A stretch of 30,566 nucleotides of DNA. It comes from a virus (taxonomy: Duplodnaviria > Heunggongvirae > Uroviricota > Caudoviricetes). The position numbers were made by a program, and so were the translations under genes. The stretch is from the IMG/VR virus record IMGVR_UViG_2609459826_000004, positions 1 through 30,566 of that record, one strand, 5' to 3'. The notes below the pieces were generated by a model, which worked only from the letters and a program-made list of their open reading frames with translations, was not told where the DNA came from and searched no databases. Shown one piece after another: positions 7,984 through 17,264 of the stretch (positions are counted from its first letter, which is position 1; each line of letters opens with the position of its first letter).

Positions 7984-8661
7984 TTATGGGATGTTTAGTA
8001 TTTTGGCATCAACCACAACGCCGATGATTTTGCAGTTTCCATTAATTTCTAGCATTGGATATGCGGGGTTAAGGGGCTTTAGGAAGCGTCTGCCGGCATC
8101 GATTACAAGCTTCTTAAAGGTCGCTTCGTTATCGCCTTCTAGCTTCGCGACAACCAGCTTTCCGTTGCGCGGCTCGACTTCAGGATCAACAAGTATCGCT
8201 GCTCCCTCGGGTATGCTCAGTCCAGCCGGGGAGGTCATAGAATCCCCTTTAACGTCCAGCCAGAATGAATCTTCTGAGCAGTCAACAGTCGTGTCATACC
8301 AGCGATCTATCGCTCTTCGGTGATAAGGTTCTACAGCTTCCATCCATTGCCCCGCGCTTACCCAGCTGATTACAGGATAACTTCCTTTTGTCTCGTTCAG
8401 TCCTCGAAATGCAACGTTCGAAGGTTCTTCACTGGCGTGTAAAACATCCATCCAGCCAAAAGGCAGATCAAGCGCAGTTTCAATTTTGCGAGCCATCTTA
8501 TCGCCGATATTGCGATGAGGGTTTGGTCCCAGTAGCTGGCTAAGCGCAGCCGGACTTGTCTCGATGAGCTCGGCAAACTGCGCTTTGGTCATTCCAGACT
8601 CGTGCTGACGCTTCTCGTACAGCGCTTCCAGGTTGGCTTTTCTGATTTCTTTATTTTCCAT
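7984..8661 (-). CDS. cI: cI-like phage repressor (N-terminal HTH, C-terminal LexA/S24 peptidase domain)
   Basis: Start placed at the internal ATG 8659-8661 (MENKEIRK...), since the longer track ORF reads through the operator region. N-terminal HTH-like segment (MTKAQFAELIETSPAALSQL), C-terminal S24 signature with GDSM serine and downstream lysine (VVAKLEGD). Divergent from the Cro-like gene across OR. Confidence 0.85.
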   Translation of the reverse strand: MENKEIRKANLEALYEKRQHESGMTKAQFAELIETSPAALSQLLGPNPHRNIGDKMARKIETALDLPFGWMDVLHASEEPSNVAFRGLNETKGSYPVISWVSAGQWMEAVEPYHRRAIDRWYDTTVDCSEDSFWLDVKGDSMTSPAGLSIPEGAAILVDPEVEPRNGKLVVAKLEGDNEATFKKLVIDAGRRFLKPLNPAYPMLEINGNCKIIGVVVDAKILNIP

Positions 8662-8679
8662 ACCTGCATTGTTACTGCT

Positions 8680-8745
8680 TTTAGCAAAATGATAAATGTG
8701 CAAATTGCTAAATGATGCTTGCGTAGTATTTAGCATAACGCTAAA
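8680..8745. promoter_or_regulatory. Right operator region (OR-like) with divergent PR/PRM
   Basis: TTTAGCAAAATGATAAA (8680-8696) and TTTAGCATAACGCTAAA (8729-8745; perfect TTTAGC/GCTAAA arms). Candidate PR -35 TTGCGT (8718-8723) and -10 TAAACT (8742-8747) overlap the second site. 116-bp gap between the cI start and the cro start. Confidence 0.6.
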
Positions 8746-8777
8746 CTCCAAATCAAACGACTCACCCGGAGACACCA

Positions 8778-9011
8778 ATGAGCACTGAACTACACCGCTG
8801 GCGCAAGGCCGCCACTACCGACGAATGGGCGCAGCTCGCAAAGTTGGCTAACACGACGCCAGGTTACCTGGACCAGATCGCCTACGGAAATCGCCGGGCA
8901 TCTCCAGAAATGGCATCTGCTATCGAGAAAGGCACGAAGAATTTTCACCGCCAGGCTCCGGTCCTAAAAGAAAGCCTGGTATTCGCATCGCCGCGTGATA
9001 CTGCGGCCTAA
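8778..9011 (+). CDS. cro: Cro-like small HTH regulator
   Basis: 77-aa ORF divergent from the repressor; GGAG RBS 6 nt upstream. HTH-like segment DEWAQLAKLANTTPGYLDQIAYGNRRAS. Confidence 0.65.
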   Translation: MSTELHRWRKAATTDEWAQLAKLANTTPGYLDQIAYGNRRASPEMASAIEKGTKNFHRQAPVLKESLVFASPRDTAA

Positions 9012-9028
9012 CCACGAAAGGGAAAGCA

Positions 9029-9598
9029 ATGCATTCACTTACGTATCACGAGAATAACGGATTCAATGCGAATCCGATGATTTCGATAAATCAAAGCGTT
9101 CCGCGCAATAACAGTAAGCTGACCAGGATCCGCGAAGCTGTTCGCGCCTGGCAGAAGGCAACGCCCGGACAGGCTCAGGTTCACATTTCGCAACTGGTAG
9201 CAAAGGAGTGGCTGGCGCGCGGCGGTCGTGGATTGCTGCTGGCCGGTTCTGAGCACAACACCAAGCAGAACTTCTTCCGGATGATTAAAGACCCGGGACC
9301 TAAGAACGATAAAGGCCTGGTGCTACTGATCCCCGTCATTGTTGATGTGATGGCTCGGGATAACGAGCAGGTGGCCCGTCAGTTCGGTCTGGTGAAAGGC
9401 AAGACGAAAGAGGAGTTGATTGCGGAGGCCATGAAAGAGTGCACTGAAGCGCATCAGGCGAAGTTACTTGGTCAGCCGATACAACGCCTTGAGAAAGAGG
9501 TGAGAGAAGCTGCTGAAGCACTGCTGCGCTTCCTGCCAACTGAATCAATCGCTGCGGTGGTGACAAGTCTGGCCGCCATGGCGCCGGGAGTTATGTGA
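9029..9598 (+). CDS. Hypothetical protein in the cII position (possibly CII/YdaT-like regulator)
   Basis: 189-aa ORF immediately after cro. Function inferred from position only. Confidence 0.45.
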   Translation: MHSLTYHENNGFNANPMISINQSVPRNNSKLTRIREAVRAWQKATPGQAQVHISQLVAKEWLARGGRGLLLAGSEHNTKQNFFRMIKDPGPKNDKGLVLLIPVIVDVMARDNEQVARQFGLVKGKTKEELIAEAMKECTEAHQAKLLGQPIQRLEKEVREAAEALLRFLPTESIAAVVTSLAAMAPGVM

Positions 9599-9839
9599 TG
9601 GGAAGTATCAAAAAGGCGAAAGCCCCTCTGCGCGAACAGAAAGGGCTCTCAGGTGTAAAAGCGGATAGCAATTACGAGGTCAATTCTAATGGCAAAGCGT
9701 AAGAAGTACCAGGAAAAAGAGGAGCGCCGCCACCCGGACTCTCCTGATGGGATTGTGGTTGCAGCATCAAAGAACAGGTCATTTGCCGAACGTTTCGTCG
9801 GCGTGGCTCGTCTCGCACTAATCGCAGCAGGAGTGAAGC

Positions 9840-11000
9840 ATGGGCGTCGTTAGGTTAGCAGATCGGAACGGAGGCGCGTATTCCTCCAGGAGCTCTCGCG
9901 TGGATAACAGGAAGCAGGGCCACTTTGCCTTGTTCAGAAGCGCTCTCACGGCACCGTGGTCAAAGGATACGGCTAAGTTAGCCCTGTGGGTGCGCCTGCT
10001 TGGTGAAGCTCGCTTTAAGCCGGGCAGCGTTGAATTTGCTGGCCGAGAATGGATGCTTGGAGCGGGGCAGTTAGTCACCACCACCGCCATCATGGCAAGA
10101 AAACTTCGCGATCAGGACGGCAATGAGAAGAGTGCAAAAGCCGTTGAGCGAATGCTGAATTTCTTCTGCCGGGAAGGGATGTTAAGCACCAAAGGAACAC
10201 CATTCGGAACCGTGATTACCATCACAAATTACTGTGAATATCAGGGCATTTCAGGCGTCGAAGGTAATGACGAACCACCCGTCGAGCCTAAACCCAGTGC
10301 TGGCGCGGTCTTGAAGCTTGTGCACGTCGAGGGGGGTGACGAACCACCCGTCGAACAGAACAAGAATGGAGTTAACAAGAATAATAAACCCCCCCTTACC
10401 CCCCAGGGGGAAAAATCGCTCGCTCAGGATGTGATGGATTACTTCAACGAGCTGACAGGAAGCCGCTGCGCTGCCTTAGCGCCTTTCGAAAAAGCGCTTA
10501 CCACCGTGAAGAGCAAAGACCAGTGCTACACCGCTGAAGAGCTGAAACTCGTTATCCGCTGGGCCCATGTGAACTGGGGTCACAGCTTCAAGCCAGAGAA
10601 CCTGTGCCGTATGACCCGCTTTGATGGATACCTGTCAGACGCCCTGATATGGGCAGATGGTCATGGCAGCAACCCGAAAGCCTGTCTGCACGAAGAGATC
10701 ATCAAGCTCTGGAATGAAAAATTCCCTTCGAAGGCCGTTTCGCTGCATGAGTGGAACCGCCGCCGTCCGGCCTATCGAGACCTGGAAGCTGTGTGGAACG
10801 GCAAAACCACCCAGGGCAACTGGCGAGAACTGAAGCACATGGGAATGGCCTTCGAGCTGATTAGCAAGTCTTCCCTGTTCGCCACCAGAGGCGATCAGCC
10901 ATGGCTGACACTCGACTGGATCCTGAATCCGAAGAACTGGGGATCTGTCTACGAGCAGGCCATCAACGAGCACCGTGAGCGCAAGGGAGTCAAAGCATGA
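9840..11000 (+). CDS. Replication initiation / replisome-organizer protein (lambda O-like role)
   Basis: 386-aa ORF with AGGAG RBS 9 nt upstream, followed with a 4-nt overlap by the DnaB-like helicase. Contains in-frame iteron-like repeats plus an AT-rich stretch (origin-within-gene arrangement); C-terminal region resembles the conserved phage replication-protein C-terminus. Confidence 0.7.
   Translation: MGVVRLADRNGGAYSSRSSRVDNRKQGHFALFRSALTAPWSKDTAKLALWVRLLGEARFKPGSVEFAGREWMLGAGQLVTTTAIMARKLRDQDGNEKSAKAVERMLNFFCREGMLSTKGTPFGTVITITNYCEYQGISGVEGNDEPPVEPKPSAGAVLKLVHVEGGDEPPVEQNKNGVNKNNKPPLTPQGEKSLAQDVMDYFNELTGSRCAALAPFEKALTTVKSKDQCYTAEELKLVIRWAHVNWGHSFKPENLCRMTRFDGYLSDALIWADGHGSNPKACLHEEIIKLWNEKFPSKAVSLHEWNRRRPAYRDLEAVWNGKTTQGNWRELKHMGMAFELISKSSLFATRGDQPWLTLDWILNPKNWGSVYEQAINEHRERKGVKA
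10256..10354. repeat. Iteron-like direct repeats (candidate replication origin) inside the initiator gene
   Basis: 30-bp units cgtcgaNNNNNNtgacgaaccacccgtcga at 10256-10285 and 10325-10354, with an 18-bp perfect core and 69-bp period. Followed by the AT-rich run 10355-10390. Confidence 0.5.
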
Positions 11001-12370
11001 GCCGTTTTATCGATTTGTACGTTGAGCAGGCCGTCATCGGCGGGATCATGCTCGCAGCGGGCCGCACAGACGGCGTTGACATGGCGACTGACGCGATTGA
11101 GGGGCTGACTGAGGACCACTTCACAGCAACGCCTCACAAGGTGGCTCTGCGGTCCTACAAACGCCTCAACGAGTCCGGGGAGAAGATAGACCTGCTGACG
11201 TTGACCAGCGACCTTGAACGGCTTGGCGCGCTGGAAAGTGCCGGGGGATTCGCTTACCTGGCTGAATGCAGCAAAAACACACCGTCGTTCGCGAACCTTG
11301 CCTCGTACTGCGAAAAGTTGCGGGAAATGCATCTCGGCCGCCGGATGACCCTGGCGCTACAGGTAGGGATCCAGAAGCTGTCCGAACCATCCAGTGAGGG
11401 TATCGCTGACATCATCGGCAACATACAGGCGGATATCTCTGGCATCGAGCACAACACCGACTACGGCACCGAGCACATCACCACCGGGATCGACATGTCC
11501 CTCGAGACTATCCAGTCGATTATCAGCGGCGATATCTGGAAGCACAAAACCGAGCTGGGCATGGCAACCATCGACAGCGCATTCGGCGGGTTCAACAACA
11601 CCGATTTCATCGTTGTCGGCGGGCGCCCTGGCATGGGGAAAACTATGTTCAGCACCACCGTGACCGAGACAGTCGGCCTGAAAAACAAAAAGCCGGTGCT
11701 GTTCTTCAGTCTCGAGATGCCAGTGGAACAAATCTCTGAGCGAGTCGCGTTCCACCGGGCCCGGGTGAGCAAAGAGGATTTACTCAGCAAGCAGAGCGGC
11801 GTGATGGATGGTGCCTGGGGAAAGGTCGGCCACTGCATGAAGGATTTCATCGAAGCCCCGATCTATATCAACGACAAGCCATCCCTCAGCGTTCATCAGG
11901 TGCGAGCGGAAGCCAGGCGAATGAGCAAGAAACTGGGTGGACTTGGTGTGGTCATTGTCGATTACCTCCAGAAGATGCGCATGTCTGACCCTGAGAACAT
12001 GAACCGCAGCGTAGGGGAGATCGCAACCGGCCTGAAAAACCTGGCGAAAGAGTTGCGTTGCCCGGTCATCGCACTGGCTCAGCTTAACCGTAAGGTCGAA
12101 GAACGTGCTAATAAGCGCCCGGTCGCAGCTGACCTCCGCGAGTCCGGTGTTATCGAGCAGGAAGCCGATGTGATTTTCATGATCTACCGGGATGAGAAAT
12201 ACAACCCGAACACAGAACTGAAAGGCATCACCGAAATCATCTGTGTGAAGTCCCGCCATGCGCCGGGGGCAGAAAAGACCTACCACTTCAGCAGCCGCTA
12301 CTCAGGCCTGGACCCGGTAGATTTCACCTACAGCGGCCAGATGCAACAGGAGGCTGACTATGAGTGCTAA
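10997..12370 (+). CDS. dnaB: Replicative DNA helicase, DnaB family (phage-encoded)
   Basis: 457-aa ORF. Walker A GGRPGMGKT, then LFFSLEM, VIVDYLQKM and LAQLNRKVEER...ESGVIEQEADVIFMIYRDE motifs, characteristic of DnaB-type hexameric helicases. ATGA overlap with the upstream initiator gene. Confidence 0.9.
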   Translation: MSRFIDLYVEQAVIGGIMLAAGRTDGVDMATDAIEGLTEDHFTATPHKVALRSYKRLNESGEKIDLLTLTSDLERLGALESAGGFAYLAECSKNTPSFANLASYCEKLREMHLGRRMTLALQVGIQKLSEPSSEGIADIIGNIQADISGIEHNTDYGTEHITTGIDMSLETIQSIISGDIWKHKTELGMATIDSAFGGFNNTDFIVVGGRPGMGKTMFSTTVTETVGLKNKKPVLFFSLEMPVEQISERVAFHRARVSKEDLLSKQSGVMDGAWGKVGHCMKDFIEAPIYINDKPSLSVHQVRAEARRMSKKLGGLGVVIVDYLQKMRMSDPENMNRSVGEIATGLKNLAKELRCPVIALAQLNRKVEERANKRPVAADLRESGVIEQEADVIFMIYRDEKYNPNTELKGITEIICVKSRHAPGAEKTYHFSSRYSGLDPVDFTYSGQMQQEADYEC

Positions 12371-17161: not shown

Positions 17162-17190
17162 GCCTCGCCATCGTGCGGGGCTTTTTATTT
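17162..17190 (+). terminator. Intrinsic terminator downstream of Q (tR'-like)
   Basis: Hairpin GCCTCGC / GCGGGGC (7 bp, one G-U pair, loop CATCGT) followed by TTTTTATTT. Confidence 0.55.
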
Positions 17191-17264
17191 GCCTGTAGCT
17201 CAGAGGAAAGAGCAACCGCCTTCTAAGCGGTTGGTCGCTGGTTCGAATCCAGCCAGGCGAGCCA
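17189..17264 (+). tRNA. tRNA-Arg (anticodon UCU)
   Basis: Hand-folded cloverleaf: acceptor TTGCCTG/CAGGCGA, D-arm GCTC/GAGC, anticodon stem ACCGC/GCGGT with loop CTTCTAA (anticodon TCT), 5-nt variable loop, T-arm GCTGG-TTCGAAT-CCAGC, discriminator G and encoded CCA. Closely parallels E. coli argU architecture. Confidence 0.8.

Follow-up and report, generated by a model that had tools for sequence, protein, structure and literature searches.

An element at positions 10254-10410 of the virus record IMGVR_UViG_2609459826_000004 (Caudoviricetes; IMG/VR) is most probably the replication origin of this phage and the array of sites to which its initiator binds. The stretch analysed, 30,566 nucleotides (nt) long, is called the window here. 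The element lies in the linker-coding part of the initiator's own gene, which was assigned from the list of open reading frames and from PHROG matches (9840-11000, + strand, 386 amino acids). The regions flanking the linker code for an amino-terminal domain (N-domain; 9840-10250, + strand, residues 1-137) and a carboxy-terminal domain (C-domain; 10398-10997, + strand), which is presumed to be the helicase-recruiting module. An origin embedded in the initiator gene is of a known kind and is textbook knowledge for lambda and SPP1. What appears to be new is the layout of 12-nt direct repeats in two clusters separated by a spacer, which occurs with at least five specificities.

The initial annotation had described two 30-bp units in this gene, and the sequence agrees with it. 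Unit 1 at 10256-10285 (CGTCGAAGGTAATGACGAACCACCCGTCGA) and unit 2 at 10325-10354 (CGTCGAGGGGGGTGACGAACCACCCGTCGA) are identical at 26 of 30 positions and start 69 nt, or 23 codons, apart, in frame within 9840-11000. Both contain TGACGAACCACCCGTCGA (10268-10285 and 10337-10354) as a perfect core of 18 nt, both start and end with CGTCGA, and the translation contains the peptide DEPPVE twice, as had been noted. No exact direct repeat in the gene is longer than this core. Its length exceeds what is expected by chance: after codon shuffling (1000 rounds), the longest repeat of the gene had a mean of 9.7 nt and was never longer than 16 nt. Tandem Repeats Finder reported nothing in the region since the copies are short and interrupted, and a k-mer and register analysis was used in its place.

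The repeats are real, but the elementary unit is not a 30-nt sequence present twice. It is a 12-nt site of the form xCC-GWCGAR-nnn, arranged three plus three, with the register set from the relatives. Their 12-nt period identifies the 30-nt unit as a triplet of such sites and the 69 nt as 24 + 45. Cluster 1 (10254-10289, + strand) consists of the three in-frame sites GGCGTCGAAGGT, AATGACGAACCA and CCCGTCGAGCCT, starting at 10254, 10266 and 10278, and cluster 2 (10323-10358, + strand) of CACGTCGAGGGG, GGTGACGAACCA and CCCGTCGAACAG, starting at 10323, 10335 and 10347. The + strand accordingly has the core hexamer GWCGAR at six positions, 10257, 10269 and 10281 in the first cluster and 10326, 10338 and 10350 in the second, with spacings of 12, 12, 45, 12 and 12 nt. 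All six sites are direct repeats that lack dyad symmetry; their core, of about 8 nt, is asymmetric. In relatives whose identity is 81-82%, all six sites read CCGTCGAACC. Across the whole window the hexamer was not enriched (76 observed, 65 expected), and no second cluster of it was found elsewhere in the 30.5-kilobase window.

A comparison of the repeat number among related phages, which the initial annotation had proposed, was carried out on about 135 loci with relatives of the N-domain, taken from annotated phages, GTDB genomes and IMG/VR; of 365 viral-contig relatives, 80 were included. The DNA 3' of the N-domain was aligned across the loci, which gave 125 distinct sequences. Nearly all of them carry short direct repeats directly after the N-domain, with a strict 12-nt period and in two clusters. 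The start-to-start spacings are 12, 12, 45, 12, 12 for the 3+3 arrangement or 12, 12, 12, 45, 12, 12, 12 for the 4+4 arrangement, and the first site of cluster 2 always follows the last site of cluster 1 by 45 nt. Within a site, positions 2-8 are conserved and positions 11-12 are free. The number of clusters varies from one to four in steps of one cluster plus one spacer. A single cluster without a spacer was seen in locus L054, four clusters of four sites in L007 (1854-2200), and four three-site clusters as a perfect 69-nt unit, with a frameshift in a C-run, in L095 (1857-2200). Locus L033 is truncated after the spacer.

Five main core types were distinguished, and each of them matches one clade of the N-domain. 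The type GTCGAA (16 loci) is the group of the window, with N-domains 81-100% identical to that of the window. The others are GATRAA (27 loci), GGTAACA (25 loci), CCGCACAT (24 loci) and CCGCGCAT or CCGAGCAT (21 loci). The tetrapeptides encoded by the sites are unrelated between the groups (VEPP, DEPS, AHEA and others). Homologs of the N-domain with about 30% identity, annotated as 'DnaD-like helicase loader', are present in the Lactobacillus phage phiAT3 and in a Vibrio phage. In phiAT3 (locus L137, 1490-1620) the sequence GTCAATCAA is repeated four to five times at 12 nt and is followed by a purine-rich AT tract and a long palindrome; in the Vibrio phage (L138, 1520-1605) repeats of an 11-12-nt period precede a purine-rich AT tract. 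Since these distant homologs share the layout, it would be much older than the enterobacterial family.

Some of the records call for a comment. An initiator of the enterobacterial type was found in the 2.7-kilobase record OR850084.1, named 'Staphylococcus phage SA 1298 Kay', and in L007, a contig of the alphaproteobacterium Martelella alba (NZ_SZPQ01000041.1); both are probably mislabelled or contaminants. Many homologs of the N-domain in the databases (P0121-P0211) are 'partial' proteins on short contigs, and the repeat region possibly tends to break short-read assemblies.

Between the two clusters lies a conserved 33-nt spacer (10290-10322, + strand) with the core CCAGTGCTGGCGCGGTCT at 10294-10311. 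Its family consensus CCAGTAATGGCGCGGCTT was recognisable, with at most 6 mismatches in 18, in 118 of the 125 distinct loci and in all iteron groups. Third codon positions of the spacer are more conserved than second positions, and its alanine codon is GCG in 90 of 97 cases. The spacer is evidently under constraint at the level of the DNA. A hairpin in the spacer (AAGCC...GGCTT) was tested and rejected, as 46 of 104 variants have C-C for the central pair and no compensatory pattern was seen.

The second cluster runs into an AT-rich and purine-rich tract (10355-10390, + strand), the candidate DNA-unwinding element. The AT-rich stretch that had been annotated after the units is the only one of its kind in the gene. 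Its content of guanine and cytosine (GC) is 30.6%, whereas the gene has 54.8% and the window 53.2%, and all five 36-nt windows of the gene with a GC count of at most 11 of 36 start at 10351-10355. The tract has a strong positive AT skew. It is conserved in the relatives, where the homologous 36 nt have on average 75% AT and 70% purine on the top strand (115 relatives).

The tract is followed by a C7-TTA-C6-A-G5 element at 10389-10410, which includes CCCCCCAGGGGG as an inverted repeat (10399-10410). Inverted repeats whose stem is 5 or longer occupied this place in 98 of the 115 relatives and occurred in 119 of 345 control windows from the N-domain, and stems of at least 9 were found in 19 relatives and in none of the controls. 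The sequences of these inverted repeats are mutually unrelated (C5/G5, ATTAAATACTAACGTATTTAAT, TCTAATAATAAATTATTAGA, CTCTTACTGAAGTAAGAG and others). On the minus strand (10412-10389) the element and the complement of the AT tract score as a hairpin with a T-run, resembling an intrinsic terminator for leftward transcription. Termination is probably not the conserved role of 10389-10412, because other relatives have AT-rich or non-GC palindromes there. As single-stranded DNA, the C7/C6/G5 element folded no better than its shuffles (-5.3 kcal/mol, z -0.48).

The synonymous sites show what is selected in the repeats. Four-fold-degenerate third positions in core codons 1 and 2 had an entropy of 0-0.2 bit in four of the five groups, whereas the N-domains of these loci had 1.0-1.5 bit at their four-fold sites. 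This near-invariance argues that the DNA rather than the peptide is under selection. Weaker cases were codon 1 in the window's own group (0.69 bit) and the GGTAACA group (0.6-0.77 bit). Codon 4 of each site, which lies outside the core, had 0.9-1.65 bit. In relatives of the ENT1 type identical synonymous changes (GAACCACC to GAGCCTCC) occurred in both clusters, which indicates that the repeat copies evolve in concert.

The initiator is modular, and the sites go with one of its modules. The N-terminal 137 residues match phrog_27581 and phrog_2514, and the C-terminal 200 residues match phrog_277 'replication initiation O-like' (E 3e-23). A contingency table showed that C-terminal types are common to several iteron groups, and the core sequence follows the N-domain clade and not the C-domain. 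The C-domain type of the window is also found, with up to 97% identity, fused to N-domains of the lambda type (PF04492). A natural exchange of this kind was seen in the Klebsiella phage RCIP0114, which has 93% DNA identity to the window from position 10391 on, into the helicase gene. Upstream of the junction it codes for a lambda-type N-domain (133 bits to PF04492) and carries four TTAGC-N7-GCTAA iterons, an AT tract and a C5/G5 element at the identical position. Iteron specificity appears to be inherited with the N-domain, independently of the C-domain and of the helicase partner. Members of the family with a lambda-type C-domain have the lambda right-hand sequence (TCGTCCGAGAATTCTGACGAATCC) after their 12-nt sites. 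The left arm of the origin thus belongs to the N-domain, the right arm to the C-domain.

By modelling, the N-domain is a winged helix (residues about 30-135) with a predicted recognition helix at residues 99-111. Against the Pfam family Phage_rep_O (PF04492) the N-domain of the window scored 18.3 bits, below the cut-off of 28.7, and the Salmonella clade scored 23 bits, also below it. CUS-3 (56.9 bits) and the Yersinia phage vB_YenM_29.18 (40.9 bits), which are 45-49% identical to the window, exceed the cut-off. Because of these intermediate homologs, the N-domain is classed, from sequence comparison, as a probable divergent branch of the lambda-O N-domain superfamily. Pairwise BLASTP of the N-domain with lambda O gave no significant match, and its profile gave only chance-level matches to PDB sequences. 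Residues 100 and 103, where the predicted recognition helix starts, are among those specific to a group. Phylogeny fully confounds the mutual information computed between iteron group and the columns of the N-domain, which is used only as a pointer to residues 100 and 103. Because the iteron groups and the clades are confounded, these specificity residues are no more than suggestive.

The closest known system is ori-lambda. Four 18-bp iterons and a 38-bp AT-rich region lie inside the lambda O gene (PMC3349717). In the lambda record NC_001416 we found in gene O the four 18-bp palindromic iterons, followed by an AT-rich, purine-rich tract and a palindrome around the EcoRI site. The window has the same order of parts, and in both systems the origin is located in the initiator gene at the boundary between the two domains, where the N-domain carries the iteron specificity and the C-domain that for the helicase partner. 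Both systems have the gene order cI-cro-cII-O-helicase/loader, and the N-domain of the window is probably a distant relative of Phage_rep_O, linked to it through the homologs of the CUS-3 clade. The positional equivalence of the element to ori-lambda was shown by computation. The lambda-like arrangement proposed in the initial annotation was borne out in position and order, by the domain boundary, the AT tract with its inverted repeat, the roughly 125 relatives, the constraint on the cores and the module swap in RCIP0114, as far as sequence can tell. The likeness does not extend to the sites themselves. The window has six 12-nt direct repeats in two triplets with a 33-nt spacer, whereas lambda has four 18-bp palindromes in one array, and the internal dyad symmetry of the lambda iterons (ATCCCTCAAAACGAGGGA) is missing from the window sites. 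For this reason the stoichiometry and geometry of binding would not be transferable from lambda. The partner also differs, since it is a phage DnaB-type helicase in the window and the P loader in lambda.

In this last respect the window resembles the P22-type module, which consists of the initiator gene 18 and the helicase gene 12, with the origin expected in the initiator gene. In both, a phage helicase of the DnaB family directly follows the initiator gene. The gp18 N-domain of P22 is of the lambda O type, unlike the N-domain of the window, which belongs to a divergent clade with 12-nt sites. P22 was not among the tblastn matches listed, which cover most of the 82 matching records.

Non-palindromic direct repeats are known from oriL of SPP1, where gp38 binds direct repeats beside an AT-rich unwinding element within gene 38 (PMC6316719). 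The window is like SPP1 in having such repeats and an unwinding element inside the initiator gene, and a DnaB-family helicase. It is unlike SPP1 in that SPP1 has a separate loader, gp39, and a second origin, oriR, and no second copy was seen in the window. A sequence relationship to SPP1 was not detected either: Pfam scans of the window gave no replisome organiser or SPP1 gp38 family, and the PHROG matches were O-like and 'DnaD-like'. Plasmid iteron origins with a winged-helix Rep, such as the multiresistance-plasmid initiator 4pta, were compared as a related type. Their iterons, of about 17-22 bp, lie outside the rep gene and their Rep has tandem winged helices, features that the window does not share.

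From the positional homology and the pattern of selection we infer binding of the initiator, unwinding of the AT tract and recruitment of the helicase by the C-domain. The winged-helix N-domain would bind the six 12-nt sites in the two triplets flanking the 33-nt spacer. The nucleoprotein complex may then destabilise the adjoining AT-rich, purine-rich tract at 10355-10390, and the C-domain would bring in the phage DnaB-type helicase (10997-12370), as in initiator-helicase modules of the P22 type.

Several points weigh against the element being an origin of this kind. The conserved 33-nt spacer is not accounted for, and the sites lack the dyad symmetry of the lambda iterons. Both clusters of the window open with a site that is degenerate outside GTCGAR (GTCGAAGGTAAT, GTCGAGGGGGGT). 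The N-domain encoded in the window stays below the Phage_rep_O threshold, and an hhalign profile comparison of it with lambda O was not significant. The iteron groups coincide with the N-domain clades, so that their co-variation is confounded by shared descent. The 12-nt architecture of two clusters and a spacer was not found described in the searchable literature. The literature on iterons in lambdoid and Stx phages covers only the lambda-type O, a paper on the 'Eru' replication types contains no origin analysis, and the motif string CCGCACAT matched only unrelated primer sequences.

Recognition of the origin in this family could follow a geometry distinct from that of lambda, a tentative reading to which we give a minor share of the probability. 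Single winged helices would line up head-to-tail on the 12-nt repeats in two arrays, with the spacer (core GGCGCGG) holding the register between them. A factor common to all specificity groups would read the spacer; it could come from the host, or it could be the basic, invariant arm at the N-terminus of the initiator (RSSRMENQKQG).

It is improbable that the initiator-binding sites are purely regulatory and that strand opening occurs elsewhere. The sites would then serve autoregulation, a roadblock to transcription of the operon, or titration or handcuffing of the initiator. They do lie inside a transcription unit that is open to such control, and the DNA-level selection and the co-variation with the N-domain report a constraint on binding sites, not the firing of an origin. 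Against this stands that the sites are always followed by the AT-rich, purine-rich tract and the inverted repeat, exactly as in ori-lambda, that RCIP0114 has lambda-type iterons at the identical position, and that the window holds no second cluster of sites.

The conserved sequences might also be patches of homology for recombination, or mosaic boundaries between initiator modules. The junction in RCIP0114 at 10391, directly after the AT tract, fits this proposal, and so does the sharing of both the AT tract and the inverted repeat to its right by different types of N- and C-terminal modules. We regard it as very unlikely, since it leaves the clade-specific cores at a strict 12-nt period, the synonymous conservation and the fixed 45-nt step unexplained, and a shared origin core would be expected to bring about recombination at this place as a by-product. 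Least probable of all is that the repeats are coding only, a flexible linker rich in proline and glutamate that was made by slippage and kept for the protein: they are in frame between two folded domains, with DEPPVE encoded twice, and the clusters change in number by whole units, but the groups have the 12-nt period, the 45-nt step and the spacer in common and not the peptide, the synonymous sites of the cores are near-invariant across genera with the fourth codon free, and the spacer is better conserved at third than at second codon positions.

The proposed origin has the surroundings of a lambdoid early-right operon, as which the region 7984-12370 is identified from its gene content. The operon includes a cI-like repressor with an S24 peptidase domain (7984-8778, minus strand), a cro-like helix-turn-helix gene (8778-9011) and a cII-like gene (9029-9598; phrog_163, E 4e-39). 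The cII-like protein also has a near-threshold Pfam match to YdaT_toxin (20.7 bits, threshold 21). A small open reading frame of 54 amino acids (9689-9853), similar to HK97 gp53 (phrog_1331), overlaps the start of the initiator gene. Its DNA is about 75% identical to the counterpart in dozens of lambdoid phages (HK97 gp53, Sf6 gene 42, Stx phages), in which it is kept although the downstream initiators differ. The DnaB-family replicative helicase gene (10997-12370, + strand; Pfam DnaB_C E 2e-76, DnaB N-terminal domain E 1.4e-17) overlaps the initiator stop codon (ATGA). A search of 8700-11100 gave no sigma-70-like promoter. HK225/mEp237 and the Enterobacter phages ENT1/BHUENT are relatives of the window, which is a mosaic. 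A tRNA-Arg gene (anticodon TCT) is located at 17189-17264 on the + strand within the phage region, and 5774-5871 matches the Rfam family isrB, an Hfq-binding small RNA (38.2 bits, gathering score 35).

The initiator lineage is widespread. It occurs in CUS-3, in Kapi1 and in a large set of Stx2a-converting phages, and also in prophages of Salmonella, Klebsiella, Enterobacter, Yersinia and Xenorhabdus; no described origin for this lineage was found in the literature. A defined origin would allow the annotation of origins and replication-compatibility types in such phages, and its sequences would be candidates for use in plasmid vectors or in origin-based interference. Concrete features for testing are the conserved spacer and the inverted repeat, found in lambda too, beside the AT tract. 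At least five natural site specificities, paired with small changes in the recognition helix, make the family suited to the study of how initiator-origin specificity evolves. If the distinct geometry were true, these naturally swapped cores would amount to a ready-made recognition code for the DNA specificity of winged-helix initiators. The mechanism itself is not surprising; the element is well defined, widespread and directly testable.

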